A DNA stretch of 64,000 nucleotides from Acidobacteriota bacterium (GTDB taxonomy: Bacteria > Acidobacteriota > Aminicenantia > Aminicenantales > Saccharicenantaceae), in assembly GCA_028749115.1 (NCBI GenBank), contig JAQURD010000002.1, forward strand, positions 145,402 to 209,401, read 5' to 3'. The notes beneath the pieces are model-generated. The model did not search any database. It saw only the letters and a program-made list of their open reading frames with translations, and was not told the origin of the DNA. Shown here one piece after another: positions 5,519-40,958 of this stretch (positions within the stretch are counted from its first letter, which is position 1; each line of letters begins with the position of its first letter). Both the position numbers and the translations under genes were made by a program.

Positions 5519-6745
5519 ATGAAGATACTTCATGTCTTGACTTCTTTCGAACCAGCCTGGGCTGTAGGCGGTTCGATCACCGCTCATGGTAATCTCTGCC
5601 GGGCTTTGCACCGGCTGGGCCATGAGGTGACCGTTTATGCCAGTAATGTTGATGGTCTGGGCGGCCGTCTGGATGTTCCTACCAAACAGCCAGTTAATCT
5701 GGATGGCCTGGAAGTCTGGTATTTTCGTCAAGAGCTGGGCAGAGTCCGGGCTTTCTATTCAAGTGGCCTGCTTCGCCATCTGAAAAAGACAGCCAAAAAC
5801 TTCGATGTCATTCATTTAGCCGGCCTGTGGCAATATCTATGTGTGGCCGCTACCTCAATTGTAAAAAAGCAGGGTCTTCCTTCCATCATCACCCCACATT
5901 CCAGCCTGATGACGGCTTCGTTTTATGGAGTTGGCTCTCTCCCCGTAAAAAAATTTTACTGGAATCTATTTGGGAAAAAAGCCATCAAAAATGCTACTGC
6001 CGTTCATTTTCTAAGCGAGGGAGAAAGGCAGGATTCCGAGGATTTTACCAGAGGCGAGGCCAGCTTTATAGTTCCTAATGGCATTTTTACCGACCGTTAT
6101 GAGAGAAATGATAATCTCAGGGCAGAACTCAGAAAAAAATTAAATCTGCCTGAAGAGGCTCTGGTTCTCCTTTTTCTGGGCAGGCTTCATCCCAAAAAAC
6201 AAATTGACCTGATTATTAAAGCTCTGCCCGCCGTTTTAAAGCACCGGCCGGACGTTTTTCTAGTGATTGTCGGCCCGCCCGGCAAGGAAGACTATGTCAA
6301 TAATCTTAAAAATCTGACAGCCAGCCTGGGATTAGAAAAACACGTCATCTGGGTAGGTCTTATTGATCATCATGAGACACCCGCCTATTATTCAGCTTCC
6401 GATCTCATGGTCTTGCCCAGCTTAGCTGAAGGAGTCAGTATGGCCCTGACCGAGGCTATGGCGGCTTCCCTGCCCCTTCTTATCACCAACCGGGTCGCTA
6501 ATTGGGTAGAGATAGAGCAGGACGGAGCAGGATTGGTAGTCGAACCGGTGGCCTTCGATGTAGAAAAATCTCTGGTCAGGCTGGCCACTGACCCGACTCT
6601 TCTGGCCACACTGTCCAGACAGGCTAAAGAATCAGCCAGAAAACGATACGACATTAGCCAGGTTGCACCTCTTATGCTCAGGGCTTACCAGGATGTTATC
6701 ACCGGAGAAAGAAGTCCCGAGCTTCACTGGCAGCAAAAAAGCTGA
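5519..6745 (+). CDS. glycosyltransferase family 4 (GT-B, group 1)
   Basis: MKILHVLTSFEP...GG N-terminus and C-terminal EGVSMALTEAMAASLPLLIT motif typical of GT4. Confidence 0.8.
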   Translation: MKILHVLTSFEPAWAVGGSITAHGNLCRALHRLGHEVTVYASNVDGLGGRLDVPTKQPVNLDGLEVWYFRQELGRVRAFYSSGLLRHLKKTAKNFDVIHLAGLWQYLCVAATSIVKKQGLPSIITPHSSLMTASFYGVGSLPVKKFYWNLFGKKAIKNATAVHFLSEGERQDSEDFTRGEASFIVPNGIFTDRYERNDNLRAELRKKLNLPEEALVLLFLGRLHPKKQIDLIIKALPAVLKHRPDVFLVIVGPPGKEDYVNNLKNLTASLGLEKHVIWVGLIDHHETPAYYSASDLMVLPSLAEGVSMALTEAMAASLPLLITNRVANWVEIEQDGAGLVVEPVAFDVEKSLVRLATDPTLLATLSRQAKESARKRYDISQVAPLMLRAYQDVITGERSPELHWQQKS

Positions 6746-6814
6746 GATTGACTGCGCTACGCCTGTTAACCGACCCCGCTAAAAAATATAGCGACCGTTT
6801 TTTAGATTAATCAC

Positions 6815-7402
6815 TTAAGGTTCAATTCTGGTGCCCAGTACTTCCAGGAACTTCCGCATCCACTCTGGATGTCCAGGCCAGGCGGCAGCAGTCACCAGAT
6901 TGCCGTCCACATGAGCGTTGGACAGGCTGTCATTTAGCTCGCCCCATTTAGCTCCGGCTCTAATCACATCTGGTTTTAGGGCCGGATAAGCTGTGCAAAG
7001 TTTACCCTTAAGGACATCGGCCGCGACCAGCACCTGCGGGCCATGACAGATGGCAGCTATAGGCTTGTTATTTTCGTCAAAGTGCCTGACGATAGAAATT
7101 ACTTTTTCATTCAAACGGATGTACTCCGGGGCACGTCCGCCCGGAATAACCAGGGCATCATAATTTTTTGGATCAATCTCTTCAAAGGTCGCAGTCAGGG
7201 CAAAATTGTGGCCTGGTTTTTCACTGTAGGTTTGATCGCCGACAAAATCATGAACAGCAGTTTTGACCGCCTCCCCTATTTTCTTGCCAGGGCAGACGGC
7301 ATCAACCTGATGGCCGACCATGGTCAGCATCTGGAAAGGAATCATGGCTTCATAATCCTCAACATAGTCTCCAACCAGCATCAGAATCTTTTTGACACTC
7401 AT
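6815..7402 (-). CDS. DJ-1/PfpI-family intracellular protease/amidase
   Basis: Nucleophile elbow [10 protein letters not shown], class-I glutamine-amidotransferase-like fold, strong RBS GGAGG. Confidence 0.8.
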
Positions 7403-7522
7403 TTTTACCTCCTCTTTATGTTATTGGACATCAATAATTTAAACCTATTTGGTTAAAACAGGCAAGGCCAGGATCAATGTTTAACTTCCGGCGGTTTTGG
7501 GGATTGATTATAAAAAATTTAA

Positions 7523-7598
7523 TGGTGGAGCTGACCGGGCTCGAACCGGCGACCCCGTGACTGCCAGTCACGTACTCTCCCAACTGAGCTACAGCCCC
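7523..7598 (-). tRNA. tRNA-Ala (anticodon GGC)
   Basis: Reverse complement is GGGGCTGTAGCTCAGTTGGGAGAGTACGTGACTGGCAGTCACGGGGTCGCCGGTTCGAGCCCGGTCAGCTCCACCA (76 nt); cloverleaf folds, G3:U70 Ala identity pair, anticodon loop CTGGCAG, encoded CCA. Confidence 0.9.
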
Positions 7599-7611
7599 AC
7601 CGGGTGAATTT

Positions 7612-7640
7612 ATGATACAGAAAACCTCCTTTCCCGTCAA
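7612..7640 (-). promoter_or_regulatory. putative sigma70-type promoter for tRNA-Ala (TTGACG-17nt-TATCAT)
   Basis: Minus strand reads cTTGACGggaaaggaggttttctgTATCATaaattcacccggt then the tRNA 5' end. Confidence 0.4.
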
Positions 7641-7644
7641 GAAG

Positions 7645-7689
7645 CCGGAAACAGGGGACACCATCTATATTTCCTATTCTTTCTTGGCC
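7645..7689. repeat. conserved intergenic motif copy 1 (CCGGAAAcaGGGGACACcATCTATATTTCCTATTcTTTCTTGGCC)
   Basis: About 90% identical over roughly 40 nt to 17598-17644. Confidence 0.6.
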
Positions 7690-8302
7690 TTTCCTTTTCT
7701 GCCTATGTATTTTGTGAATTACTGCCAAGAGTGGCGGTAAGGCGTTGACCTGCCTCCCGATTTCCTCATCGACCGTAATAGCCAGGACAGATTTAGCAAG
7801 ATAGTAGGGTTAGAAACGGGCTGAGCAATTTTGGACAAAACCTATTTGGTGTCCTCACTTAAAATCTATAACTATGCTGATCTCTACCGATCTAAGGAGA
7901 TTTAGGCAGAGTTGATTTGTTGTTTGATGAGAAAATCTCAACGAAAAATATTTTGCCGGCCAGCCGCTCTAATAAATATCTGAGCTGATAAAACGACCGG
8001 ATACACTCAGAACCAGGGAGGCATGAACCACAGGTAGTGGCAGGTTGTCTATACATAGCAACATCTATCTTACCTCAAATATCACCAATGTGCCTGACCC
8101 AGCATACCGATCCTGTGATCTAACCAGAATCGGTATTTAAGTTGACAAAAAAACTACTAGATTTAAGATATATTATCTCAAGATTTTTTGTGGTCTCAGT
8201 GGTCACCTTGACTGATACTGGTCGTAACAAAAGAATATTGAATATTAACCACGCCACTATTCATTTAATAAAATCAAAAATCATTCCTTAGAGAGGAGGA
8301 CT

Positions 8303-9640
8303 ATGAATAAACATCTTAAAAAAATCAGTCCGGCATTCAGTAGACCTGTGATCTTGGTTTTTTTATTTATGGTTATGGTGATTCCTTTAGCCAGTTCAGG
8401 CCGGGCCGGCAGCCAGGCAGTCAAACCAGCCTATGCCCTGGTCAACTGCCGGATATTCCCGGTGGCCCAGCCGGTTATAAAAAAAGGAACAATCGTTGTC
8501 CGCGATGGTTTGATTGAAGCTGTTGGGCCGACCGCCAGCATTCAAATTCCAGATGACGCCGAAATTATCGAGGCCAGCGGCTTAACCGCTTATCCTGGTT
8601 TGATTTCTGCTCACACCAACCTGTTCTTTGAAACAAAAGAACAGGCCCAACCAGCCACACCTGAAGATTATTTAGCTGCTTACAGCCAGCCGGCAGAACC
8701 AAAGGAATTTCCCTGGCTTCAAATCATAGAAAAACTTAAACCGAAAAAGCAGACCGTTGAAGCCTATCATCGAACCGGCGTCACCACAGTAGTCGTTGCC
8801 CCCAATGAGGGGATTTTCCAGGGACAGAGTGTTGTTCTCAATCTAAACGGCGACCAGATTAACGAGATGGTCCTTCTCCAGCCCTGGGCACTTAACATCA
8901 ACTTTACCACCGAGAGAGGAGTTTATCCTTCGAGCCCCATGGGCACTTTAGCCTTCCTCCGGCAGAAATTTTATGATACCCAGCATTACAGTCTTCATCT
9001 TCAAAAATACCTCCAATCACCGCTATTTTTAAAAAGACCCGTATATGACCCTTTTCTGGAAGCGCTTCTGCCGTTTGTCATTGACAAAAAACCAATTGTT
9101 TTTGAGTGCCATAATCTCGAGGAAATAAAACGCGCCCTGAAACTCATTAAAGAATTTCAATTAAATGCCGTCCTCTCCGGTTGCAACGAAGCCTGGCGGG
9201 TTAGCGAGGATCTTAAGTCAGCCGCTAATATTCCTCTGCTGGTCACCCTTGATTTTCGACCCCCGACCAGCAGCCATTATGCTCAGGAAGGACAGACTGC
9301 TAAGGAGAAGGCAGAAAAAGAAATTTATCCGGCTAACGCTTCACACCTCTTCCAGGAAAAAATTAATTTCTCACTGACCAGCTTCGGTCTGAATGAATCA
9401 AATTTTATAAAAAATCTCAGATTGGCCATTCAAGTGGGCCTGCCGGCTGACCAGGCTTTGCGGTCTTTGACCATTGAGCCGGCTCGCACTCTTGGCCTGG
9501 AGAAACAACTGGGTTCTCTCGAACCGGGCAAAATTGCCAACCTCATCCTGACCAGAGGAGATCTTTTCGATGAAAAAGCACAGGTGGTCAAAGTCATGGT
9601 TGATGGAACCTTATTCACTTATGAGGAGAAAGGCCAATGA
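8303..9640 (+). CDS. secreted amidohydrolase-superfamily protein (COG1228-like), HxH metal site degenerate
   Basis: Signal peptide; amidohydrolase fold; the strand-1 motif reads PGLISAHTNL instead of DxHxH; stop overlaps the next start (ATGA). Confidence 0.75.
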   Translation: MNKHLKKISPAFSRPVILVFLFMVMVIPLASSGRAGSQAVKPAYALVNCRIFPVAQPVIKKGTIVVRDGLIEAVGPTASIQIPDDAEIIEASGLTAYPGLISAHTNLFFETKEQAQPATPEDYLAAYSQPAEPKEFPWLQIIEKLKPKKQTVEAYHRTGVTTVVVAPNEGIFQGQSVVLNLNGDQINEMVLLQPWALNINFTTERGVYPSSPMGTLAFLRQKFYDTQHYSLHLQKYLQSPLFLKRPVYDPFLEALLPFVIDKKPIVFECHNLEEIKRALKLIKEFQLNAVLSGCNEAWRVSEDLKSAANIPLLVTLDFRPPTSSHYAQEGQTAKEKAEKEIYPANASHLFQEKINFSLTSFGLNESNFIKNLRLAIQVGLPADQALRSLTIEPARTLGLEKQLGSLEPGKIANLILTRGDLFDEKAQVVKVMVDGTLFTYEEKGQ

Positions 9641-10950
9641 GAAAAAAAATAAAGAAAACCGGCTTGCTTATATCTTTTCTAATTCTTTTTCTGTCCTCAG
9701 CCACCTGGCTCTTAGCCAGCGGCAATTTGCTGATTAAAAACGCCACGATTTTGACTGTAACCGGCGGTGTTATCCCCCGCGGTGATGTTCTGGTCATCAA
9801 TGGTTTAATAGAGCAAGTCGGCCAGAACTTAACTGCTCCAGCCGACGTCAGAATTATTGACGCGGCCGGCAAATACTTGATGCCGGGCATCATTGATACC
9901 CATACCCACATCGCTCTCTCTGGCACCAACGAGGGGACGGACGCAGTCACACCAGAAGTTAATATGGCCGAGGTGATTAATGCTGATGATACTTCCATCC
10001 TGACTGCTCTGTCCGGTGGTGTGACCATGGTTCATACCATGCACGGCAGCGCTAATGTCATTGGAGGAACCAACGTTGTTCTGAAGCTTAAATGGGGCCA
10101 ACCTTCTGAGCAGCTCGTTGTCAAAGAAGCTTATCCCACTCTTAAATTTGCTCTGGGTGAAAATGTCAAGCAATCTAATTGGCCTCTTCTCCCCGGGCGA
10201 CCTCAGCGTTATCCAGCCACCCGCCTGGGTGCCAATGCTCTTATCAGAAGCGAATTAATAAAGGCGAAAGATTATATGGCTGCCTGGGATCGCTATGAGC
10301 AGCTTAAAAAATCCGAAAATCCGCCGGCTGACCTCTTGCCTCCAAGAAAAGACCTGAGACTGGAGACACTGGCCGGCCTTCTTCGCGGCCAGCTCATCGC
10401 CCGCTGTCATGCCTATGTCGCCACAGAAATGATCGAGTTTCTAAACCTCTCCAAAGAATTTGGCTTCAAAATAGGGGCTTTTGAACATGCCTGGGAAGCC
10501 TACAAGATAGCTGACGAGCTAAAAGCCGCCGGCGTCGGGATATCAGTTTTTGCTGATTCCTGGGCTTATAAAATGGAAGCAGCAGAAGGCATCGCCTATA
10601 ACGCTGCTTACTGCACCAAAAAAGGTATTCTGGTCTCGATTAATTCCGATAGCGGCGAGCGGATAAGAAGGCTATTTAATGAAGCCGGGAAAACGGTGAA
10701 GTATGGATTAACCCAGGACGAAGCCTTGAGGCTTATTACCATTAATGCTGCTAAACAACTGGGCGTTGACCATCTCGTCGGCAGCATTGAAGCTGGCAAA
10801 CAGGCTGACCTGGCTCTTTTCAGCCGGCATCCAATGAGTGCTTACACCCGTTGTGAGATGACGATTATTGAGGGCGAGGTTTACTTCGACCGGGAGGCAC
10901 TTCTCAAAGAAAGAGCTGCCGCTTCAGCTAAAAAAGGAGGCTTATCATGA
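9637..10950 (+). CDS. secreted amidohydrolase (COG1228-like dipeptidase/prolidase-type), intact metal site
   Basis: Signal peptide; PGIIDTHTHIALSG canonical HxH; 4-nt overlaps with both neighbours. Confidence 0.8.
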   Translation: MRKKIKKTGLLISFLILFLSSATWLLASGNLLIKNATILTVTGGVIPRGDVLVINGLIEQVGQNLTAPADVRIIDAAGKYLMPGIIDTHTHIALSGTNEGTDAVTPEVNMAEVINADDTSILTALSGGVTMVHTMHGSANVIGGTNVVLKLKWGQPSEQLVVKEAYPTLKFALGENVKQSNWPLLPGRPQRYPATRLGANALIRSELIKAKDYMAAWDRYEQLKKSENPPADLLPPRKDLRLETLAGLLRGQLIARCHAYVATEMIEFLNLSKEFGFKIGAFEHAWEAYKIADELKAAGVGISVFADSWAYKMEAAEGIAYNAAYCTKKGILVSINSDSGERIRRLFNEAGKTVKYGLTQDEALRLITINAAKQLGVDHLVGSIEAGKQADLALFSRHPMSAYTRCEMTIIEGEVYFDREALLKERAAASAKKGGLS

Positions 10951-12320
10951 GGCTAATGAGCATGGCTCAAACCGGTCGCCAATTAAAAGATAGAAAGAAC
11001 AGCAATCTGCTTCTGGCCCTGGCTGTCTTACTGAGTGTTATTCTCATCATTCCGCCATTTTCACTGGCCCAAACAGCCGCAGCAGCCGAAAACGGCTCAG
11101 AAATTATAGCTATTGTCGGTGCCAGAATTGTTCCCGTCACCGGCCCGGTTATTGACTCTGGCTCCATCCTGATCAAAGATGGCCGGATTGCTGGTCTCGG
11201 AACCAGCATTTCCATCCCGGCCGGAGCCAGGGTTATCGAGGCTAAAGGCCTCATTGCATATCCGGGAATGATTGACAGTTATTCGTGGCTCGGCCTGGAA
11301 GAAATCAGCGGAGTTCGGGCCACAGTCGATAATCGCGAAACTGGCCGGATTAATCCCCAGGTTAAAGCCATTGAAGCTCTCCATTATGATTCCATGCATA
11401 TCCCGATTGCCCGGGCCAATGGTATTGTGGCGGCAGTAGTTGCCCCTTCCGGTGGCCTTATCTCTGGACAGAGTACTCTGGTAAAATTAGATGGCTGGAC
11501 CAACCGGGAAATGGTTATCAAAGAATCACTGGCCATGGTGATCGAACTCCCAGCTCTCAGGAGAAGCCGCGGAGAGTTTTCTGGTCTCAGCCGTCAGCAG
11601 CCTCAGATCTCTACCGAGAAAGTCCTTGATGAACTGCGGCAAATTTTCGAGAAAACCAGGATGTATGAGAAAAGAAAAGAAGCAGCCCAGAAAAGCATCC
11701 TTCTGCCACCGCCAGATTTTGATGAGGCCAGTTACTTTCTCCTGCCCGTGGTTAAAGGTGAATTGCCGGTCATTTTCTCAGTTCATGCTGATAAAGATAT
11801 CCTCCAGACCATTAAATTTGTACAGGAAGAAAAGATAAGGGCTATTTTTTACGGAGTTGAACAGGGCTTTAAAGTTGCCAGGGAAATCAAGCAAGCCGGC
11901 CTTCCCTGTATTATTGGTTCTCTTTACAGCCTGCCGCCTGTCGGGGAAGATGGCTATGATGCCCTTTTCTTAAATCCGGTCATACTCAACGAGGCTGGCG
12001 TTAAAATTGCTTTTTCCTCCTCAAGTGCCAGCGCTGCTAAAGACCTCCCCTATCATGCTGCCAAAGCGGCAGCCTTTGGGCTCAAACCAGAAGAAGCCCT
12101 CAAAGCTGTGACCATTTATCCAGCAGAAATCTTTGGTGTGGATAAATTGATGGGCAGTCTCAAGCCAGGCAAACTGGCTAATATAGTTCTGACCGACGGT
12201 GATCTGCTTGAGCTTGGAACAAAAATTCAAAAAGTTTTTATCGAAGGTAAAGAGGTTTCACTGGAAAACCGTTATACTGTGCTTCTGGAAAAATTTGAGC
12301 AGAGAGATAAAAGAGAATAA
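10947..12320 (+). CDS. secreted amidohydrolase-superfamily paralog, HxH metal site degenerate
   Basis: Signal/TM N-terminus; motif reads PGMIDSYSWLGL (no HxH); translationally coupled to the upstream gene. Confidence 0.75.
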   Translation: MRLMSMAQTGRQLKDRKNSNLLLALAVLLSVILIIPPFSLAQTAAAAENGSEIIAIVGARIVPVTGPVIDSGSILIKDGRIAGLGTSISIPAGARVIEAKGLIAYPGMIDSYSWLGLEEISGVRATVDNRETGRINPQVKAIEALHYDSMHIPIARANGIVAAVVAPSGGLISGQSTLVKLDGWTNREMVIKESLAMVIELPALRRSRGEFSGLSRQQPQISTEKVLDELRQIFEKTRMYEKRKEAAQKSILLPPPDFDEASYFLLPVVKGELPVIFSVHADKDILQTIKFVQEEKIRAIFYGVEQGFKVAREIKQAGLPCIIGSLYSLPPVGEDGYDALFLNPVILNEAGVKIAFSSSSASAAKDLPYHAAKAAAFGLKPEEALKAVTIYPAEIFGVDKLMGSLKPGKLANIVLTDGDLLELGTKIQKVFIEGKEVSLENRYTVLLEKFEQRDKRE

Positions 12321-13092: not shown

Positions 13093-13461
13093 TGGCTTTT
13101 TCTCCTTACAGTCTATTTATTTCATCTTAATAATACAATGATAAGGGGCTAATGGAAAGAAAACAAATCGCTGTTTTAAGATTAAGGCTAAATTTATTTG
13201 CCCCTTAGCTGACCGGTGCCGGCAAAAATATCATTGGGCCTACCTGCCCTATCTGCCTCAACAGTGATAATCAGATAGCAATAGGGCAAAAATAGAGATT
13301 GACTTTGCCGTTCATTTTTGTTATAGGAGTTGCATCCTTCAAAGGGGAAGGTTAAGCTATTAGAAGCAAAAAAGGTTCTTTATGCTTTTTCAGGGCTCCA
13401 CCGCCCGAAGTGAGGCTAATTGCTATTTAATCTAGGTTTGACAATGCCAAAGGAGGCAAAA

Positions 13462-15201
13462 ATGAACAAAATGAAGAAACTTTATTCAGCGAGGTTTTAT
13501 GTCATCTGTCTTGGGCTGATTATGCTCTTTATCTTTATGGGCCATTCACAATTAATTCAGTCAAGACAACTGCAAAAAATTCCACTGGATAAAATTGCTT
13601 TAGCGCAGCCCAAAATTATTATGGAAAAAACACCACTGGAATCTCCGAAAGGAATGAGGATTTTTGAGACAAAGGTCCTATCTGTGCGTACCGATCTTAT
13701 CCAAAAATTTATTGCAGAAAAAAGTCTTATGAAGACACCTTTAATCATGAAAAATTTGCCTCAGCAGGAAGAAATCTACCAGGAATCAGAAAAAAAATTC
13801 ACCAGAATACTGACCAACACACAGCGAGGGCACATGATCGTGCTCCCTCATCTCGAAAAAATAGCCATGACCAAAGCTCAGCTTTTGAGGCACGACATGG
13901 CCATGAATAAAGCTATGGAACAGGTTAACCTCATGCAGCTTATCCCCAGAGACGAAAGTAAAGTCACGCCAAAGCAAGTTATCACCTTAACCAGAGCTCA
14001 AGTCAAGCAGGGCGAGCCGGCCGTAGTAAGCGATATCCTCCAAACTGTTTTATTCCAGAGAACCCTTGATGATAAACCTGTGGTAGGCAAGGGGTCTCAA
14101 CTTTTTGTTGAACTTGGGAATGAGGGCAAGTTAGAGGGCTACAGCCGAACCTGGAATGAGGTCATACCAAGCAACCTTGTGCCTGAATTCAGAACAGATC
14201 AAGAGATTTATGACGATATCGAAAAAACTTTGACGACTCAAATCAAAGGGAATGTAACTGTGCAGGTCAGAAAACCCAGACTCATCTATTTTGGAGATGA
14301 CAGAAAATTCGTCCAGCCTGCCTATTTCTTCACGGCTGAAATCTCTTCTCCTGAGGCCCTGGGAAAAGCCTATTATGCAGGAATTGTTACAGCTTTGAAA
14401 AATCCTCCCGAACCGGTGCTCCTGCCTCAAGAAGAAAAGATGCGGGCTTTGCCTCTTCAGGTTTCTCCCCTGCCGAAGGGCAAGGCCAGCGGGCCTTTTA
14501 TTCCCCAGGATGACCCGAGTGTAGGCCGTTATGTCGTCCGCAATGATAGCAATGATTGGGTTGATGACGCTAATGACTTTCGTAATGGTCTGTTGCAAGG
14601 CCACAGCAGCAGCAGTCCTGCCATTAGCTTTGGCGATTACTACTGGGATGAGCCCTGGCTCTGGACAACTGATGAAAATTCCTATGTTGATAAATGGCAC
14701 ATTGTTCTTATGGAGGGACATGGAGCGAACTGGCTTTTTACGACTCGAAGCAATTGTTGTGACGTCGTTAACCTGAACGCTGCTAGCCAACCAGGATATG
14801 GAAACCGGGCTGGCGATAGCATGAGATTCCTTATCCTTAAAGGGTGTTCTATCATTCCCGCTCCTCCTGATAGAGCCAATTGGCCAGACCCGTGGTGGAG
14901 AATCTTTAAGGGACTTCGCCAGGCAGTGGGATTTCGCACATCTATGTACATTAACGATAACATTTCTAAACACTTTGGCAAGCATCTTGCCCAGAACTGC
15001 CGGGTCCTTGATTCCTGGTTTCATGCAACCAATGATTGTTCAAGCTATAGCTGGGAACGTTTCTGGGGAAGCTGGGGTGATGAAGTCTATGGATATGGTG
15101 CGGTAGTCATGATCCCGGGACATGAAGGAGACGGCATTTATTCCACAGCAGCCCTGCCAGCCGCAACTTCAACAGGATTGACCATCTGGTGGCAGCACTG
15201 A
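13462..15201 (+). CDS. secreted/anchored protein with C-terminal caspase-like (clan CD) putative cysteine-peptidase domain
   Basis: RBS AGGAGG 6 nt before the ATG at 13462; N-terminal signal/anchor; C-terminal WHIVLMEGHG (His, nt 14719) ... RFLILKGCS (Cys, nt 14845), each preceded by a hydrophobic beta-strand about 42 aa apart, resembles a clan CD His/Cys dyad. Confidence 0.5.
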   Translation: MNKMKKLYSARFYVICLGLIMLFIFMGHSQLIQSRQLQKIPLDKIALAQPKIIMEKTPLESPKGMRIFETKVLSVRTDLIQKFIAEKSLMKTPLIMKNLPQQEEIYQESEKKFTRILTNTQRGHMIVLPHLEKIAMTKAQLLRHDMAMNKAMEQVNLMQLIPRDESKVTPKQVITLTRAQVKQGEPAVVSDILQTVLFQRTLDDKPVVGKGSQLFVELGNEGKLEGYSRTWNEVIPSNLVPEFRTDQEIYDDIEKTLTTQIKGNVTVQVRKPRLIYFGDDRKFVQPAYFFTAEISSPEALGKAYYAGIVTALKNPPEPVLLPQEEKMRALPLQVSPLPKGKASGPFIPQDDPSVGRYVVRNDSNDWVDDANDFRNGLLQGHSSSSPAISFGDYYWDEPWLWTTDENSYVDKWHIVLMEGHGANWLFTTRSNCCDVVNLNAASQPGYGNRAGDSMRFLILKGCSIIPAPPDRANWPDPWWRIFKGLRQAVGFRTSMYINDNISKHFGKHLAQNCRVLDSWFHATNDCSSYSWERFWGSWGDEVYGYGAVVMIPGHEGDGIYSTAALPAATSTGLTIWWQH

Positions 15202-18943: not shown

Positions 18944-19480
18944 TCAATCGTCTATTTTCAGCAAATTGCTCTTACCACCAATGCCAGGCAACGATAATGA
19001 ATTTTGAGGCGCATAAATTTTCGGTGCCTGGGTAGTATAAGGATTATTCATGCTATAAACAGAGTAGCGGTTGCCATAAGGACTATATGGATTATTAATG
19101 CTGACCGGTGAGTACTTGCTTCCATAGACTCCATAAGGATTGGACACCGATTCGGGATCATACTTGTTCGAATTTAGCCGGCCGAGATACTGACCATCCT
19201 CACCAACAAGAATTGGGGAACTCGATCCAGAGACATAGCGGTTATTAACGCTTGACGGTGAATATGGTGAGCCGTAGGGTGAATATGGATTATTGACACT
19301 ATCAGGTGAAAATTTACTTCCATACTGGCCACAGGGGTTAGAGATGGATTCCGGATCATACTTATTAGCTGAATACTTCCCCAGGTATTTATACTTCTGA
19401 TTTTTCGTATTGCTCGTCTGTCCAAAAACCAGAGAAAACGAAATTAGCGTAACAAACAGAATGGCAAAAGCTTTTTTCAT
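18944..19480 (-). CDS. small secreted Tyr/Pro/Ser-rich protein with internal tandem duplication
   Basis: Signal peptide; two roughly 50-aa repeats NKYDPES(I/V)SNPxGxYGSK(F/Y)SPxS(V/I)NNPYSPYG. Confidence 0.6.
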   Translation of the reverse strand: MKKAFAILFVTLISFSLVFGQTSNTKNQKYKYLGKYSANKYDPESISNPCGQYGSKFSPDSVNNPYSPYGSPYSPSSVNNRYVSGSSSPILVGEDGQYLGRLNSNKYDPESVSNPYGVYGSKYSPVSINNPYSPYGNRYSVYSMNNPYTTQAPKIYAPQNSLSLPGIGGKSNLLKIDD

Positions 19481-19641: not shown

Positions 19642-21981
19642 ATGAATCCTAAAAATTATAAGAAACCAGACTTTAGCTTGAAAGAAATCAGGACTATGGC
19701 GGCTAAGGCTTTTGTCCTCGCACTTAAGGAAATCAGACCTCTACCCGGCGACCGTTCCCAGAATTTTCTGATAACAGACCGTTCAGGCCTGAAATATGTT
19801 TTAAAAATCTCATCTTCATTTGACCACCTGGAGGAACTGGATTTTGAAAATCAGGTCGTCCTGAAGCTGAGCCAGGAGCTTTCTGATTACCATTTTCCGC
19901 TGCCGCAACCTGATATTAATGGCCAGCTAATAAGCTGCTATGAGCGTGGCAATAAGGTCTTCTATCTCCGGCTTTTTGATTACATGGAAGGGCCGAGCCT
20001 GGCCGATTTGCAGTCTGTGCCGTTATCTCTCTGGTCAGAAATTGGCCGTCTGCTGGCTCGAATAGACCTCGTCCTTAAGGATTTTTACCACGCCGGAAGC
20101 AGACGCGAACTGCCCTGGGATGTGAAAAATGTCCTATGGTCAAAAGATAGATTGAAATATGTAACTGACCCGGTCAAAAGGAGGCAGCTTGATTATGTTC
20201 TTCTCCAGATTGAGACTTACCTCCTCCCTGTTTCGACCGGGCTTCGCCGCCAGGTCATTTACGGTGACGGCAATGAGCATAATTTCATTCTCCAGGTAAA
20301 AAAAGAAGCTTATCGCCTGACCGGCCTGATTGATTTTGGCGATATGAGCGACAGCTTTCTGGCCGCTGAGCCAGCTATTGCCCTGACCTATGCCATGATG
20401 AAGACCTCCGCGCCCGAAGAAGCCGTAAAAGTGCTTCTCTCTGCCTATCATAAAATCAACCCGCTGCAGCCGGCCGAACTCGATGTTCTTTATTACCTGA
20501 TTCTGTCGCGTCTTGTTATCAGCCTGACCATGGCTGCCTGGAGACGGCAGACTGAGCCGCAGAATGAGTATATGACGGTATCAGAAGAACCGGGCTGGAA
20601 ACTGCTTGATTCTCTGTTTACCTCCAACCCGGAAAAATGGCGAAGCCTTTTTTATAAAAGCTGTAAACTCGAGCTGTCTTCTCTCTGGCTCGAAAGCGAG
20701 AAACTCCTCGGATTCAGGAGTGAGCATATCTCTGAGGCCATGAGTCTGACCTACCGCCAGCCATTGCACATAACCAGGGGTGCCGGCCAGTATCTTTTTG
20801 ATGACCGCGGTGAATCCTATCTCGACTGTGTCAATAATGTTTGCCACCTGGGACACTGCCATCCGCGCGTAGCCCGGGCTGTCGCCCGCCAGATGGCCAT
20901 ACTCAACACCAATACCCGCTATCTTTACGACGTATTAGCTCTCTACGTGGAAAAACTTTTATCAAAGTTTCCGGCGAAGTTTCAGTACTGCTTTCTGGTT
21001 AACTCCGGCAGCGAAGCCAATGACCTGGCCTTACGTCTGGCCAGAAATTATACCAGGGCGACAGAGATTTTAGTCCTCGATAGAGCCTATCATGGAAATC
21101 TGAGTTCGCTCATTGATATCAGCCCTTATAAATTTGACGGGCCGGGAGGAAAGGGTGCTCCACCCTTCATTCATAAGCTGGCGACTCCTGATCCCTATCG
21201 GGGGCCGTATCGCGGTCGAACCGAGGCGACCAGCCTGAAATACACCGCCGACGCCAGGCAGGTCATTAATGATTTAAAAGCCGCCGGTAAAAAGCTTGTC
21301 GGTCTGATCGCCGAACCAATGATGGGCTGTGCGGGCCAGGTCATCTTTCCACCGCGTTACTTAAAGCATGCTTTTGATCTGGTTCACCGGGCCGGCGGAG
21401 TCTGCATTGCTGATGAAGTTCAGGTTGGCTTCGGACGTCCGGGGCGTTTCTTCTGGGGTTTTGAATCGCAGGAGGCTTCACCGGACATTGTCACGCTAGG
21501 AAAGCCCATCGGCAACGGCCATCCAATTGGGGCGGTCGTCACAACAGAAGAAATCGCCCGCTCGTTTGTCACCGGCATGGAATATTTCAACACTTTTGGC
21601 GGCAATCCGGTAAGCTGTGCTGCCGGTCTGGCTGTCCTCGAGGCGATCGAGGAGGAAAATCTCCAGGAAAATGCTGGCTCGGTTGGAGACTATTTTTTGA
21701 AAAGGCTCAATGAGCTGCAGTCAAAACATGAGTTAATCGGGGACGTCCGCGGGCTGGGATTATTCATAGGAGTTGAGCTGGTCAAAGACAGAGAAACCAG
21801 ACGGCCAGCGACTCGTGAGGCTGAACTCATCGCCGAGAAGATGAAAAGAAATAACATTCTGGTGACAACCGAAGGCCCTTACCACCAGGTGTTAAAGATC
21901 AAGCCCGCTATCATTTTCAACAAAGACAATGTTGATTTATTCGTCGAGACTCTTGATGAGATTCTGAAAGTTTTTGATTAG
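19642..21981 (+). CDS. fusion protein: APH-like kinase domain + class-III aminotransferase-like (AGXT2L/phospho-lyase-type) PLP domain
   Basis: N-terminal about 330 aa carries catalytic-loop GDGNEHN and IDFGDM (DFG-like); C-terminal about 440 aa carries [11 protein letters not shown] and the PLP Lys in TLGKPIG of class-III aminotransferases. Confidence 0.8.
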
Positions 21982-33004: not shown

Positions 33005-33697
33005 TCATATATCTAACAGATACCCGTTCTTTTTAAGCCAGTCTTTATGTTTTTCATAATCTGGCAGCATTAGCTTGATTTTTGCCCAAAACTCCTTAGT
33101 ATGGTTTTTCTCTACCAAGTGAATTAATTCATGCACTACTGCATAATCAATAACTCCCAATGGGGCCATGATAAGACGCCAAGAAAAATTTAAATTTCCA
33201 GAGGGAGAACAAGAAGCCAGCCTTTTTCTTGAATCAGTAATGTTTACCTTATTAAAACTTAATCTCCTTTTTTGGGCATACCACCTGACTCTTTCTGGTA
33301 TCTTCAAACGGGCTGCATCTTTGTACCAGTTAATGATCAATTCTCTTGCCTCCGGTAGCGCTTTGTTAGATATAAAAAAACCTCTGTCAAACTTAATCGG
33401 AAGGTCCTGCTTACCGACAACCTTAAGTTTGTAATAAGCTCCAAGATAAGGGAATCCTTCTCCGTTGACATATTCTTTTGCCCTGAATAATTGGCGCTCT
33501 TTAGCTAATTCATCACTTTTTTTATTAATCCAGGCACTATTTTTTGCCAAAATTTTCCTTATAGTCCCGTCGTCGGTATTGGCGGGAACACGAAAGATTA
33601 GCTTCCCGCCCGAGCCAATCTTCAAAGACATAGACTTTCTGTTAGTTCTTACAATTTCTATTTCAGGCATTCTTCTTTCCATATATATGATAGGCAA
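33005..33697 (-). CDS. DUF45/YgjP-like (M48/WLM-type) zinc metallopeptidase, hsdR-associated
   Basis: HExxH motif in VVHELIHLVEKNH; this family is typically encoded directly downstream of type I hsdR. Confidence 0.7.
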   Translation of the reverse strand: MPIIYMERRMPEIEIVRTNRKSMSLKIGSGGKLIFRVPANTDDGTIRKILAKNSAWINKKSDELAKERQLFRAKEYVNGEGFPYLGAYYKLKVVGKQDLPIKFDRGFFISNKALPEARELIINWYKDAARLKIPERVRWYAQKRRLSFNKVNITDSRKRLASCSPSGNLNFSWRLIMAPLGVIDYAVVHELIHLVEKNHTKEFWAKIKLMLPDYEKHKDWLKKNGYLLDI

Positions 33698-36600
33698 GCT
33701 CTAATAGTTTCTGAGCAATTTCATTCCTTTTGGTGTGGATCTTGCCTCCCCATCCCGGCTCGTTTCCTTCTGCACTTCCTGATCGTTCAAGATGCTTGGC
33801 CTTTAAATTCAGCAAATGCGATATTAGATATGATTTTAACCGTTTTTGTTTTGTATAATTTTCCCAAAAATCGACAGACCTTATTTCTTTTTTAACCATT
33901 TCAATAATATCCCTGGTTATATCTATAAGAAAACTCAAATCCTCTTGTGATAGTTGGTCTATGGAATCCTTCCCATATATTTCTTGCTTCAGGAGGCCAA
34001 AAAATGGCATCTCTTTTTTAGGATCAAAACCAAATGTTTGCTCGGCTTCCCTGCCCTTCTTTAGCTTATCCCTTATTATTTCCAGTCCAGCTGCCAGCTC
34101 CTCCCAATTATTTTTATATTGTTCTAAAATTGAGTTTAATTTATCAGAAAATCTTTGATAGAACTCCGGGTCTTCCTCGAAGTGCTTTTCTATATAGTCT
34201 TTAGTAGCAAATTCTAGTTCCAGTGCTCTAGCTTTTGCTGTCCTCGCCTTTACTTGTTTTATAAAAGCGTCATCAAGGAGAGGCAATGGGGCAACTTTTG
34301 GGTTCACTCCTTTGGAAATAAGAAATTCTTCCACTATCTCCCTTATCTTTTTGCTGGCATCCTTTAGGCTAAGCTTATCATCTCGAAATCTGTTGCGAGC
34401 TGATTCTTTTATGAACTCAATGATTTTTAAATCAGTAACATATTTTAAAGCCTGGGGATCCGGCAAGACCGCATCCATTAATTTTTCAAAATTCCTTACC
34501 AGAGATATAAATTCGTTTCTTGTCTCTTCATCTACCAACAAGTCAATACACTCTTCTAAATTGTTTCTCCAGTCACTTACTCCGTAACTTCCAAAAAAAC
34601 TTTCAATTTGATTGTGAACATATTCAAGCTGATCAAAACCTTTCGCCTTGTTTATGATAACTTGAGAAATTTCCTCTATATCTTCGTCAGCATAAATAGC
34701 CAGTGCTTCCTTCAAATGTTTAAGAACACCGACATAGTCAACTACAAAGCCGCAGCTCTTATTTTCATAGACCCTGTTGACCCTAGCTATTGCCTGAAGC
34801 AAATTGTGTTCTTTGATTACATTATCCAAATACATAACCTGCTCCAATGGCGCATCAAAGCCAGTAATCAACATGCTTTGGACGACAATTATCCCTGTAT
34901 CCCCATTTATCCCACCTTCTGCAGTCTTACCAAATGGCAATTTAAAGCTCTTAATTAAACGCTCATGAAGATTGGGGTCGGTATAATCATGGTATTCTGG
35001 TGGGTCGTTAGGGAGACCAGAAATTATGACAGCCACCTTAAGCCTTTCCAGCTGTGCTATGTCCATTCCCAGAGAGCTTTCCCGGCATAATTTCTCGATC
35101 TTTCCCCTTAGAGCTTCTTCTAAAGCTTGTTTATATCTGATAGCCGCAAGCCGTGATACAGCTACAACCTGGGCTTTAAATCCGTTTGGAAAAACATGCT
35201 CAACATAGTGATCGATCATGTCCCTGGCTTTATCTCTAATTACTTTCTGATCTTCAAGATAAGCCCTCCACGTATAGCGGCCTAAGAGTCTTTCTTTTTC
35301 ATCTGGACCGACCTGAGCAAAGACATCTTCAAATTTGGCATTAGCTGCCCCTTCATTTGTAAGCTCAGCAGAGTGGACTCTCCCCTCATAGACAATTTCA
35401 ACTGTCACCCCATCCTCAACCGATTGCTTAATCCCATAGCGGTCAATATAGTCGCCAAAAGTCATTTTAGTTTTTTCTATTGGCGTTCCGGTATAGGCGA
35501 TTCTTATGGCGTTGGGCAATGCCCTATTTAAATTGGCACCCAAAAGGCTATACTCAGTCCTGTGAGCTTCATCAATCATTATTAGGATATTCGATGAGAT
35601 ATTTAAAATGGGAAACTGAGTTTCTAAGTCTCTTTCCTGAACTTTGTGAATCATTCCCATAACTAAATCTGGTGTATTTGTCTTTAAAAGTTCCTTAAAT
35701 TGGCTAATGCTATTGGCGAGGTTGACCGTGAAGCCTACACTTTTTGAGGTCTCTTTCAGCTGTCTTTCCAGGTCTTTTCTATCAGTGATAAAAATAATCT
35801 TATACTTGGCCAGTTCCGGATCATGATACATGGCTCTTACAGTAAACATCATAGTCAGGGACTTTCCTGAGCCCTGGGTGTGCCAGATAATACCCCCCTT
35901 ATCCTTTGGATCGGTTTTTTCTTTAAGACGCTTTATAATTTTTTTGACAGCTCTAAACTGCTGGTACCTTGGTGTAAGCTTTATAATCTCGCCTTTGTGA
36001 TCTTCTCTGAAAATCGTGAAATTATAAAGGATGTCTAACAAGTTATCTTGGGAAAGCATACCCTGCACAAGCACTTGTTGACTGGTGAGATTTCCAGCGG
36101 CTCCAATATCCGAGAGGGCAAAAGGATAAGGGTCTTTCCATTCGACAAAATGCTCGTGCTCGCCAGTGATCGTGCTATATTTAGCTGTTTGATTAGATGT
36201 TGCAATCATAAAAAGGTTATACCAGAAGAGCTTTTCATTGCCTTCCTTTTCGCCCCTTTTATTGGCGTACCTCCAAAGTTGGGTAATTGCTTCAGAAACA
36301 GGATCGGCTATGGCCGGAGACTTACATTCAATAACGACCAGTGGCAATCCATTTACAAAAAGCACGATGTCCGGGATGATATGTTTTTCAGTACCTGGGA
36401 TATTAACCTTAAATTGTGAAATTGCCAGAAAAGAATTGTTCTCAGGTCTTTTAAAATCTATATACCTGACAGTAGGACTCTTTTCACCAGTCTTTCTGTT
36501 TTCTGAAACGGACATATTTTCTATTAAGAGGTCATGAATCTCTCTATTGGCCTCCAGGAGAGAATGTCCCTGAGGGATCGTAATTCGCCTAACAACCTGG

Positions 36601-36860
36601 GTTATCTGATCTTCTTCAATCCATGCGTTTATTCTTTTTAGAGACTTTTTTAGCTCGTCTTCGAGAATAATCTCTATGAATGCCTCCCGAAGTTTAACCA
36701 CCTCACCATATCTAGGTTCATTCTGGTCGTTAAACGATAATATCGGCCAGACCTGCTCAGGATCATCTTTATTTTGCCTATAAATTCCCCACCCGAGTCT
36801 CTGCAGCTGGGCTAAGAGCGCGTTTTCTACATAAAATTCTTCGTCTAATTTCTTATACAT
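33663..36860 (-). CDS. hsdR: type I restriction enzyme R subunit
   Basis: N-terminal PD-(D/E)xK (IPDIVLFVNGLPLVVIECKSP); SF2 helicase motifs GSGKSLTM (I) and DEAHR (II); 1065 aa. Confidence 0.9.
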   Translation of the reverse strand: MYKKLDEEFYVENALLAQLQRLGWGIYRQNKDDPEQVWPILSFNDQNEPRYGEVVKLREAFIEIILEDELKKSLKRINAWIEEDQITQVVRRITIPQGHSLLEANREIHDLLIENMSVSENRKTGEKSPTVRYIDFKRPENNSFLAISQFKVNIPGTEKHIIPDIVLFVNGLPLVVIECKSPAIADPVSEAITQLWRYANKRGEKEGNEKLFWYNLFMIATSNQTAKYSTITGEHEHFVEWKDPYPFALSDIGAAGNLTSQQVLVQGMLSQDNLLDILYNFTIFREDHKGEIIKLTPRYQQFRAVKKIIKRLKEKTDPKDKGGIIWHTQGSGKSLTMMFTVRAMYHDPELAKYKIIFITDRKDLERQLKETSKSVGFTVNLANSISQFKELLKTNTPDLVMGMIHKVQERDLETQFPILNISSNILIMIDEAHRTEYSLLGANLNRALPNAIRIAYTGTPIEKTKMTFGDYIDRYGIKQSVEDGVTVEIVYEGRVHSAELTNEGAANAKFEDVFAQVGPDEKERLLGRYTWRAYLEDQKVIRDKARDMIDHYVEHVFPNGFKAQVVAVSRLAAIRYKQALEEALRGKIEKLCRESSLGMDIAQLERLKVAVIISGLPNDPPEYHDYTDPNLHERLIKSFKLPFGKTAEGGINGDTGIIVVQSMLITGFDAPLEQVMYLDNVIKEHNLLQAIARVNRVYENKSCGFVVDYVGVLKHLKEALAIYADEDIEEISQVIINKAKGFDQLEYVHNQIESFFGSYGVSDWRNNLEECIDLLVDEETRNEFISLVRNFEKLMDAVLPDPQALKYVTDLKIIEFIKESARNRFRDDKLSLKDASKKIREIVEEFLISKGVNPKVAPLPLLDDAFIKQVKARTAKARALELEFATKDYIEKHFEEDPEFYQRFSDKLNSILEQYKNNWEELAAGLEIIRDKLKKGREAEQTFGFDPKKEMPFFGLLKQEIYGKDSIDQLSQEDLSFLIDITRDIIEMVKKEIRSVDFWENYTKQKRLKSYLISHLLNLKAKHLERSGSAEGNEPGWGGKIHTKRNEIAQKLLELAYHIYGKKNA

Positions 36861-39208: not shown

Positions 39209-40958
39209 CCCTATCTTGTTTTTCCCATTTAACTGTTTGTTCGGAATTCTTAGAAAAATATTTTAAAAAGACATTTTTCGTGCCTATGGGAACAAAGCCA
39301 CCCTTTTTATCTATTTCTATAATCTTTTCCCTTTTGATGGGGAATATATTGTTACTTAGAGCAGAGTTATCATGACTAGAGAGGAGAGTCAAATTATCTA
39401 TTGAATGAATATTGATTTCATCAGAAAATAATTTGTATATTGTATCTTGTATTTTTTTAAATGTATTTTCGTCTATTATTTTCTCCTTTAATAAATCTTC
39501 AATATCTTTGGCCGCTACCAGATATCCATTGTTTTCTAAATATTTCAGTTGATCAGCAAGAAGAAGTTTTCTTTGATTGCTATTTTTTATAGTTTCTGAA
39601 TTTTGGGCATGAATGTGCTCTAGAGTCCATTTTTGTTCGACAAACTTATTAAAAGAGAACCTTGTTTCGTGGCTATCTTTTGCGATTAATATGTTAAATA
39701 ATAAAAGAACTTTCCTTATATCTTTATAATCTCTATCATATTCAAGCTCTCTTAAATAGTTACCGACACTATTTTTGTCCTGGAATTGGATACTTTTCTT
39801 AATTTCGTTTCTTATCCAGTCTTTAAATTCAACTTTGTCATAACTTTGACAGCATTTTATAATTTCCTTAATTTGAGTATCCGAATGGATTAGATAACCA
39901 ATTAGATGATAATATTCATCGTTATAAAACCATTCATCAAACATTCTATGATATGTCTTAACTTCATCCCATAGGCTATCCCGGGCTAAACCTTCTGATG
40001 CAATAATTTGGCCGTTAATAACGTCTATCTTTTTGGATATAAGTTCATTGAATATATAGAACGTATAATAAGGATCGATTAACTTATTTACTTCAATATC
40101 CACCAGCTTTTCATATTTATTAGCAATTAGGTCAAAGATAAATTCAATCCTAGTAGGAATATCATGTTTTTGCCTGTTTAGGAAATACCAAAATTTATCT
40201 GCCCGTAACGCACTTTCTATACTTTCCCATTCGTAGGCTCTTTTGAATTGGTGGTTCTCTCTATCTTCCTCAGATTCTTTAATAAATAAGATTGCCTTTA
40301 TTAGTTCGGCACTGGTCAGTGGTATTTTTCCCATATTTATTCTAGTGAATATTTCTGCTGGATCTTTGACCGCTTCATCATCTTCCGCCTCATACCAAAT
40401 AAATCGCACATTATTCGCTAAATCCCGGCCATTTTTTCTGTCAACCTTTATAAGAGCATTTGCAAAATCAGCCTTTGTAATCCTTTTTTGTTTTATATTT
40501 TCTTCAAACCAGTTCTTAATACATAAAAAGGCTTTGCTGATATAATAATAATCTATATTGTCTTTATCTTCTGTTATGATATCTGAGATCTTTCTTAAGT
40601 AATCTTCACTGCCCGGCCTGGTTTCATATTTTAATTGATAAATATTTTCAATATAGTAATCCTCCTTCAATCTATCCTTTAGAAAGGTTAAAACCAGAAA
40701 TATCGTTGTTAGCCTCTGCTGCCCGTCTATAACCTCATATTCATTCTGATTATTATTGTGCTTTTTGACGACGAGAGGCTGAAGGCAATAAAATTCTCCG
40801 GGTTTCTTATTATATCTACTTTGAAATTCTAAAATATCGTTTAATAGGTCAAGCACCTGCCTTTCATCCCATCTGTAACCCCGCTGATAAGACCCAATGA
40901 TGAATGTCTTGTTGAACAATTCGGGAATTGATATTAATTTAATTTGCGTCTGTGTCAT
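39093..40958 (-). CDS. GmrSD-like fused DUF262-DUF1524 type IV restriction endonuclease
   Basis: N-terminal SYQRGYRWDE ... IDGQQRLTTIFLVL (DUF262); C-terminal WTLEHIHAQN ... NLTLLSSHDNSALSN (DUF1524 His-Me finger-like). Confidence 0.75.
   Translation of the reverse strand: MTQTQIKLISIPELFNKTFIIGSYQRGYRWDERQVLDLLNDILEFQSRYNKKPGEFYCLQPLVVKKHNNNQNEYEVIDGQQRLTTIFLVLTFLKDRLKEDYYIENIYQLKYETRPGSEDYLRKISDIITEDKDNIDYYYISKAFLCIKNWFEENIKQKRITKADFANALIKVDRKNGRDLANNVRFIWYEAEDDEAVKDPAEIFTRINMGKIPLTSAELIKAILFIKESEEDRENHQFKRAYEWESIESALRADKFWYFLNRQKHDIPTRIEFIFDLIANKYEKLVDIEVNKLIDPYYTFYIFNELISKKIDVINGQIIASEGLARDSLWDEVKTYHRMFDEWFYNDEYYHLIGYLIHSDTQIKEIIKCCQSYDKVEFKDWIRNEIKKSIQFQDKNSVGNYLRELEYDRDYKDIRKVLLLFNILIAKDSHETRFSFNKFVEQKWTLEHIHAQNSETIKNSNQRKLLLADQLKYLENNGYLVAAKDIEDLLKEKIIDENTFKKIQDTIYKLFSDEINIHSIDNLTLLSSHDNSALSNNIFPIKREKIIEIDKKGGFVPIGTKNVFLKYFSKNSEQTVKWEKQDRDAYLESMVETLEEYFKDEKGKESNREGQNENQFLVFNC

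Follow-up and report, generated by a model that had tools for sequence, protein, structure and literature searches.

Does the gene at positions 13,462 to 15,201 of a 64,000-nucleotide stretch of Acidobacteriota DNA (contig JAQURD010000002.1 of assembly GCA_028749115.1; the whole stretch is called the window here) encode an exported cysteine peptidase of clan CD, the group that includes the caspases? The original prediction, made from the letters of the window, had pointed to a secreted protein of unknown family with a caspase-like His-Gly ... Cys dyad near its C-terminus. We followed it up with family searches, structure prediction and a comparison of homologous loci. The gene, its family (DUF6345), the fold, the conservation of the dyad and the coupling of the catalytic domain to an N-terminal module (N-module), fused or split, were demonstrated computationally. 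From these results we infer peptidase activity for the DUF6345 domain. The best reading, which we favour with rather more confidence than doubt, is that the product is the precursor of an exported caspase-fold cysteine peptidase that carries a chaperone/inhibitor module. Judging from the predicted fold, the dyad and the constant partner module, DUF6345 is probably an undescribed family of cysteine protease.

The DUF6345 domain and its dyad

At the family level, the protein has a home. Pfam DUF6345 (PF19872) matched amino acids (aa) 394-526 with 54.9 bits against a cut-off of 26.9, and an NCBI "DUF6345 domain-containing protein" from an Acidobacteriota metagenome-assembled genome (MAG) was 100% identical to the window protein; the label of unknown family was therefore wrong. 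PF19872 matched all 34 aligned homologues. The family, already catalogued as DUF6345, is modest in size: a word-indexed search with the protein gave 64 matches, and an exhaustive scan with the C-terminal 213 aa gave 256 clusters at 50% identity (E <= 0.001). Our literature search returned zero mentions of PF19872 and one occurrence of DUF6345, in a proteome table with the Tannerella forsythia protein WP_046825757.1 (536 aa), which was detected among outer-membrane-vesicle proteins (PMC10682907). In one Acidobacteriaceae genome, two paralogues of DUF6345 are separated by about 1.2 Mb on contig CAWDYE010000002.1 (loci L032 and L039).

The features of the domain are the following:

14509..15198 (+): aa 350-579, the DUF6345 domain; fold predicted to be of the caspase-hemoglobinase type (clan CD)
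14719..14724 (+): His420-Gly421, where the third core strand (HIVLMEGHG) ends; the His is a candidate general base and the Gly is clan-conserved
14755..14760 (+): adjacent Cys432-Cys433, in a small beta-hairpin after the His strand; possible vicinal disulfide
14845..14847 (+): Cys462, where the fourth core strand (FLILKGC) ends; nucleophile candidate

We built models with AlphaFold2 on the 34-sequence alignment and compared them with the PDB using Foldseek. The full-length model reached a predicted local distance difference test score (pLDDT) of 84.7 and a predicted template-modelling score (pTM) of 0.86, and the domain model (aa 340-579) reached 89.5 and 0.89. Both models match clan CD peptidases, in keeping with the caspase-hemoglobinase fold that had been anticipated. 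For the domain model, the best match was SAVED-CHAT (8tl0; E 1.9e-7, probability 1.00, query template-modelling score (TMq) 0.53, 16% identity), followed by weaker matches (E 6e-3 to 0.14) to C11 iotapain (6nag), CED-3 (4m9r), caspase-7 (1k86), clostripain (9cip), PIGK/GPI8 (8imx/7wld), legumain (6ysa/7fql) and MALT1 (8v4x). The C-terminal half of the full-length model independently matched iotapain 6nag, clostripain 9cip, PIGK 7wld and caspase-6.

The secondary-structure order of the domain model is b1-a1-b2-b3(His)-small hairpin-b4(Cys)-b5-three helices-b6. In clan CD, His and Cys stand on loops after b3 and b4, a small sheet lies on L3, Gly is next to His in all families, and L5 bears an aromatic residue (McLuskey and Mottram, PMC4357240). 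The modelled succession of strands and helices along the chain and the dyad placement match this layout, and several of the clan's structural features are borne out: the predicted central-sheet sandwich, His before Cys at strand ends, and Gly421. Position 496 is Tyr, Trp or Phe in 152/205 sequences and is a candidate for the structural equivalent of the L5 aromatic.

Under another reading, the domain has only a flavodoxin-like alpha/beta sandwich in common with caspases, and Glu418, His420 and Cys462 form a metal site (e.g. zinc) of a hydrolase or redox protein. Glu418 stands two residues before the His and is conserved in 165/202 sequences, and a flavodiiron protein, azoreductases and WrbA are among the weak fold matches (E 6e-3 to 0.1). 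However, the sole strong match (E ~1e-7, probability 1.00) is a clan CD protease, the Foldseek list includes six different clan CD families, and the family alignments hold no further conserved His or Cys ligand. Moreover, the signature of clan CD is this very arrangement, HG...C following consecutive strands and containing an invariant Gly (PMC4357240). We thus consider a metal site very improbable.

The dyad itself lies exactly where it had been placed, with His420 encoded by CAT at 14719-14721 and Cys462 by TGT at 14845-14847. Both residues do follow predicted beta-strands, at 414-418 and 456-460 in the full-length model and at 75-83 and 117-124 in the domain model (DSSP assignments). The claim of an exact clan CD spacing stands in part: the 42 positions from His to Cys equal His121 to Cys163 of human caspase-3, and the spacing is identical in caspase-3/7, but the spacing varies across the clan, with 47 in SAVED-CHAT (H375/C422; bioRxiv 10.1101/2023.06.23.546230), 46 in PmC11 and 49 in MARTX-CPD (PMC4357240).

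Could a pattern as short as HG...C have arisen by chance in a functionally unrelated protein? A non-significant hhalign score to caspase-3 (given below) would allow it. Defined as three hydrophobic residues, zero to two residues of any kind, HG, 30 to 60 residues, three hydrophobic residues, again zero to two residues and Cys, the pattern arose in 12 of 5000 shuffles of the protein, and 1 of the 35 window open reading frames (ORFs) of at least 200 aa contained it, namely the DUF6345 ORF. Together with the near-invariance of the residues and the clan CD fold match, this effectively refutes chance.

Conservation is stronger evidence for the dyad than the motif test. We aligned 209 retrieved family proteins to the domain profile with hmmalign and counted over the residues present at each column. 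His420 was kept in 196/203, Gly421 in 202/203 and Cys462 in 202/207, all three among the seven most conserved columns; both His and Cys were present in 195 of the 209 sequences, and His, Gly and Cys were retained in about 96% of them, across bacteria and archaea. In a divergent set of 33 domains (mutually <45% identical, about 31% mean column identity), the only invariant columns were H420, G421, G447, C462, W478, F482, G484 and W519. The conservation in orthologs on which the original prediction had staked its case is thus found in both sets.

Cys462 is the sole Cys conserved family-wide and therefore lacks a disulfide partner. Cys432 and Cys433 are co-present or co-absent across the family and occur in about 40% of members, which suggests an adjacent disulfide-bonded pair in these proteins; Cys513 and Cys526 are lineage-specific. 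The C-terminus had been described as Trp/Cys-rich. It is Trp-rich, with 15 of the 16 Trp in the C-terminal 234 aa and 1 in the first 345 aa, but this region holds just 5 Cys.

A few members lack one or both dyad residues. Both are gone from three full-length sequences (P0053 Tyr/Gly, P0172 Pro/Pro, P0207 Lys/Met), which are likely pseudo-enzymes, and Ser replaces Cys in one (P0162). Caspase-fold pseudo-enzymes exist elsewhere, for example the N-terminal domain of Raptor, and the best named structural match of the N-module is a kinase regulator. On these grounds the protein as a whole could lack catalytic function and instead bind or signal outside the cytoplasm, as a YycI-like regulator with a pseudo-protease domain that only binds a partner. 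This is improbable given the retention of His, Gly and Cys among the most conserved columns. The rare dyad losses strike both residues, the pattern expected if an active family occasionally gives rise to pseudo-enzymes, and no two-component genes are linked to DUF6345 in the window or in the loci examined.

The N-terminal half of the protein

The roughly 400 aa ahead of the dyad had been set aside as unrecognised. They contain a distinct conserved module of about 275 aa followed by a variable linker, and in some lineages the two modules are separate genes:

13603..14427 (+): N-module, aa 48-322, tandem alpha+beta sub-domains with a YycI-like structure; proposed chaperone/inhibitor (pro-) module
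14428..14508 (+): inter-domain linker, aa 323-349, Pro-rich and variable; candidate activation-cleavage region
L006 6001-7759 and L009 5001-6760, also L007, L010 and L011: split DUF6345/N-module pairs in homologous loci, in the order opposite to the fused form

The N-module (aa 48-322) was modelled well, with pLDDT mostly >90. Its best PDB match was the uncharacterised 5coz (E 2.4e-7), and it matched YycI (2o3o; twelve chains) at E 2e-6 to 6e-5 and probability 1.00, with a poor superposition (TMq 0.23, target score (TMt) ~0.5, root-mean-square deviation 9-10 A). Pfam YycI matched 1/34 members (E 0.036). The module consensus scored 24.9 bits against DUF4901 (YcdB/YcdC repeat; cut-off 27, E 2.4e-5) and 16.2 bits against FTP (cut-off 21, E 0.0096), and individual members gave sub-threshold Pfam matches to FTP, DUF4901 and YycI. 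FTP is the fungalysin/thermolysin propeptide motif, and the FTP stretch coincides with the most conserved block of the N-module, LQTVLFQRTLDDKPVVGKGSQLFVELG in the window protein. The region of the linker (aa 321-350) had pLDDT 60-69, and its length and sequence vary across the homologue alignment.

Co-occurrence of the two modules was scored in six-frame ORFs of 48 loci with a separate hidden Markov model for each module and, with locus L049 added, both were found together in 49/49 loci. The fused form, N-module first, occurs in Acidobacteriota, Cyanobacteria, a Desulfocapsaceae MAG, Bacillota, Armatimonadota, Methanothrix and Bathyarchaeota. Loci of the Bacteroidota type are split, with the catalytic gene first and the two adjacent genes each encoding a hydrophobic leader. 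In the Chitinophagaceae locus L006, a 252-aa DUF6345 protein with its own leader (6001-6759) is followed 22 nucleotides (nt) downstream by a 325-aa ORF (6782-7759) with homology to aa 114-318 of the window protein (hhalign probability 99.2%, E 7e-20). A second, unrelated contig set showed the identical split arrangement (probability 99.6%, E 5e-25). A gene for a VWA-domain protein stands directly upstream of the split pair in L006.

Other loci were less straightforward. In L049 (4001-5727), a 306-aa N-module ORF ends where a 268-aa DUF6345 ORF begins (4921); either the assembly has a frameshift here or, in this close relative, the linker itself is split. When the N-module by itself served as the profile, the search found one protein, P0226, which abuts a DUF6345 ORF and is thus uninformative as an independent occurrence of the module. 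We rejected the downstream ORF of L012 as an N-module homologue (E 0.11, with beta-propeller-like Pfam matches); the N-module of this locus lies instead upstream, in frame with DUF6345.

The full-length pTM of 0.86 implies a fixed packing between the domains in the model. Because of this value and of the fusion and fission pattern, the two modules probably work as one physical unit. Judged by gene content, the N-module, newly recognised here, is an obligate partner of the catalytic domain.

The gene and its leader complete the description of the protein:

13450..13456 (+): Shine-Dalgarno sequence AAGGAGG, 5 nt upstream of the ATG at 13462
13462..15201 (+): complete gene of a Pfam DUF6345 member, 579 codons plus TGA
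13462..13545 (+): N-terminal leader, aa 1 to ~28, with a basic n-region and a hydrophobic core at aa 12-26

The ORF is complete and encodes 579 aa, one fewer than the 580 first given. A TTG at 13420 is a possible alternative start that would add 14 residues, but the ATG at 13462 is favoured because the AAGGAGG at 13450-13456 precedes it. The leader, MNKMKKLYSARFYVICLGLIMLFIFMGHSQ, has the basic stretch MNKMKK and then a 15-residue hydrophobic core (aa 12-26, mean Kyte-Doolittle 2.8), modelled as a low-confidence helix at aa 5-26; homologues likewise have a hydrophobic N-terminal segment. This agrees with the signal or anchor that had been proposed: the composition fits a Sec signal peptide or a signal anchor, and would place the protein outside the cytoplasm. 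The Tannerella forsythia member found in outer-membrane vesicles (PMC10682907) likewise speaks for export. A 297-aa antisense ORF (14131-15024) was treated as a shadow of the conserved sense gene. The Rfam search of the gene and its surroundings gave no significant match, no meaningful repeats were found, and the promoter and terminator scans at the gene stayed at background level.

We propose that, in the DUF6345 domain, Cys462 would act as the nucleophile and His420 as the general base, both at the C-terminal ends of adjacent core strands, and that Gly421, as elsewhere in clan CD, would help to form the oxyanion and substrate-backbone site. The N-module would be an intramolecular chaperone and/or inhibitor (a pro-domain) that keeps the enzyme inactive. 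Activation would take place outside the cytoplasm, when the flexible linker (aa 323-349) is cut or the N-module is displaced. In Bacteroidota, the same two modules would be supplied as two proteins from adjacent genes. Both the role of the N-module and activation by linker cleavage are inferred, and the module most plausibly acts as FTP/PepSY propeptides do for M4 metallopeptidases. This is in line with YpeB-SleB, for which Rudner and colleagues proposed a PepSY-type chaperone-inhibitor 'akin to pro-domains in protease zymogens', with ypeB encoded next to its enzyme gene sleB (PMC13556211).

Regarding specificity, position 460, two residues before the Cys, is Lys in the window protein, and in the family it is His in 102, Lys in 61, Gln in 19 and Arg in 8 sequences. 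The corresponding residue is Asp in Arg-specific C11 enzymes (clostripain Asp229, PmC11 Asp177) and Gln in caspases. The loops that form S1 in clan CD hold conserved basic (R360, K/H460, R492) as well as acidic (D362, D470, D499) residues, so the P1 specificity is not readable.

Comparison with known peptidases and regulators

The closest structural match to the DUF6345 domain is CHAT (PF12770; SAVED-CHAT 8tl0 of Haliangium ochraceum, and TPR-CHAT of Craspase). SAVED-CHAT has a caspase-like fold with the H375/C422 dyad about 4 A apart (bioRxiv 10.1101/2023.06.23.546230). The two differ in sequence, with 16% identity and no Pfam CHAT match at E<=10. They also differ in setting: CHAT proteases are cytoplasmic defence effectors that carry fused SAVED or TPR sensors and whose activation depends on nucleotide signals or RNA, whereas the DUF6345 protein combines an export leader with a YycI/FTP-like partner module and shows no linkage to defence genes.

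The C11 peptidases (clostripain, PmC11 and iotapain 6nag of Bacteroides thetaiotaomicron) are likewise bacterial, have His and Cys at consecutive strand ends, and are secreted. The fold matches reached E 3e-3 to 6e-3 for 6nag and included 9cip. However, PF03415 did not match, and position 460 is Lys rather than an acidic S1 residue. C11 enzymes carry a C-terminal helical domain (PMC4357240), whereas the DUF6345 protein has its YycI-like module at the N-terminus.

With caspases and metacaspases (C14), DUF6345 shares the His-Gly...Cys order after hydrophobic strands and, for caspase-3/-7, the spacing (PMC4357240). It lacks the QACxG motif, with LKGCS here and IHSCE in many relatives, and PF00656 did not match. 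Furthermore, the protein is predicted to be exported rather than cytosolic, and there is no sign in it of b6 dimerisation or Asp specificity.

For the N-module, the FTP/PepSY propeptides (M4/M36) and YpeB-SleB also pair an alpha+beta extracytoplasmic module with a hydrolase, in cis or from an adjacent gene (PMC13556211). In the case of DUF6345 the partner is a predicted caspase-fold cysteine enzyme and not a zinc metallopeptidase or a lytic transglycosylase. YycI/YycH, the regulators of WalK/YycG (2o3o), are the best named structural match and are extracytoplasmic and membrane-anchored, but the template-modelling scores are low and no kinase partner lies nearby in the window or in the loci examined.

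The most fitting description of DUF6345 is that of a distinct family of the known clan CD kind. Compared with known clan CD systems, it would be unusual in having an export leader despite its closest modelled similarity to cytoplasmic CHAT, and apparently also in its obligate YycI/FTP-like partner, fused or in an adjacent gene.

A related possibility keeps the caspase-like fold and the Cys-His chemistry but changes the reaction, to a transpeptidase/ligase or an amidase of envelope polymers, with the N-module serving in targeting or substrate binding. The fold matches include legumain and the transamidase PIGK, and transpeptidase or ligase activity is found in GPI8/PIGK and some legumains. The N-module resembles YycI, an extracytoplasmic membrane-anchored regulator, and in the split form its protein has an anchor-like hydrophobic N-terminus. 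The YpeB precedent, too, involves a peptidoglycan lytic enzyme and not a protease (PMC13556211). On the other hand, peptide bonds of proteins are the target of every characterised clan CD member (PMC4357240), the enzyme with the best fold match (CHAT) is an endopeptidase (bioRxiv 10.1101/2023.06.23.546230), and envelope-biogenesis or sorting genes are not conserved neighbours in the loci examined. We regard this alternative as unlikely.

Several observations weigh against an exported caspase-fold peptidase with a chaperone/inhibitor module. YycI is a kinase regulator and not a protease inhibitor, and the likeness of the N-module to FTP and DUF4901 stays under the Pfam thresholds. The literature search found no enzymatic data for any DUF6345 protein. 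In three sequences (P0107, P0119 and P0155) Asp replaces the His while the Cys is kept. The Foldseek matches below CHAT are weak and interleaved with flavodoxin-like folds. Finally, no sequence-profile method that we applied connects DUF6345 to a clan CD family (C11, C13, C14, C25, C50, C80 or CHAT).

The sequence searches behind this last point were extensive. Neither phmmer nor a family-profile hmmsearch (the latter at E <= 10) against all PDB sequences returned anything relevant, and the NCBIfam search with the protein gave no match. In Pfam at E <= 10, the C-terminal domains of the 34 members and the family consensus matched DUF6345 only and no clan CD family. A profile search with the 33 divergent domains in a collection of 5.8 billion proteins retrieved PF19872 proteins only, and no bridge from DUF6345 to CHAT, C11 or C14. 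The hhalign comparison of the family with caspase-3 (sequence verified as identical to PDB 7xn4_A) gave E 0.084, which is not significant; its sole alignment set H420 on His121 and C462 on Cys163, which, at that score, is consistent but not evidence. None of the sequence-based tests places DUF6345 in CHAT, C11, C13, C14 or C25. The clan CD-like interpretation of the original prediction is nonetheless supported, as a prediction, by the fold match and by the conservation of the dyad.

Genomic context and significance

At the locus level, the DUF6345 gene appears to be monocistronic. Upstream lies a divergent gene for a DUF1614 membrane protein, and downstream a 776-nt gap free of ORFs followed by an alkaline phosphatase gene. 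We considered the neighbourhood as a functional clue and rejected it, since the flanking genes differ in every lineage examined. Homologues neighbour PKS/ACC genes, a phycobilisome linker, an aminotransferase, recA/uvrD and others, and the neighbours in the window (amidohydrolases, DUF1614 and alkaline phosphatase) are not conserved partners. The context therefore gives no clue to the substrate.

Other features of the window were observed alongside. Three tandem amidohydrolase-family paralogues of 445, 437 and 457 aa occupy 8303-12320 (+). Their start and stop codons overlap, and the hydrophobic leader at each N-terminus suggests a trio of exported enzymes. At 18944-19480 (-) there is a 178-aa protein with a signal-like N-terminus, repeated NKYDPES(I/V)SNPYG.YGSKYSP.S(V/I)NNPYSPYG units and no Pfam match. 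It is followed at 19642-21981 (+) by a 779-aa fusion of APH-type phosphotransferase and class-III aminotransferase domains.

Between 32000 and 52500 (-), a block of low guanine-cytosine (GC) content (0.32-0.40 vs 0.45-0.50 elsewhere), in which the GC skew is strongly negative, resembles a defence island. The block contains HsdR (33663-36860), HsdS (40980-42176) and HsdM (42188-44740), two GmrSD_N/DUF262 genes between hsdR and hsdS (36878-39208 and 39093-40958), and a 1281-aa protein (48612-52457) with a sub-threshold match to STAND NTPases.

The broader proposal is that DUF6345 is an unrecognised exported clan CD family controlled by an obligate FTP/YycI-like chaperone-inhibitor, in cis or from an adjacent gene. 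We advance it tentatively, as somewhat short of an even prospect. The gain would be incremental rather than conceptual, because the chemistry and the fold are of known kinds, and the claim is wholly predictive. The proposed exporters are Acidobacteriota, Bacteroidota (including the periodontal pathogen Tannerella forsythia), cyanobacteria and methanogenic or Bathyarchaeotal archaea.

If the proposal is true, a catalogued DUF would become a new caspase-clan peptidase family in soil Acidobacteriota, Bacteroidota, cyanobacteria and anaerobic archaea, and its N-module would be the first case in which a pro-module of the metalloprotease type controls an enzyme with the caspase fold. The two versions, fused and split, would amount to a natural experiment on propeptide-like control of such an enzyme, and the vesicle member of Tannerella forsythia would offer a tractable and medically relevant test organism. 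Prokaryotic caspase-like enzymes, mainly studied as cytoplasmic defence effectors, would then be joined by an exported, non-immune branch.

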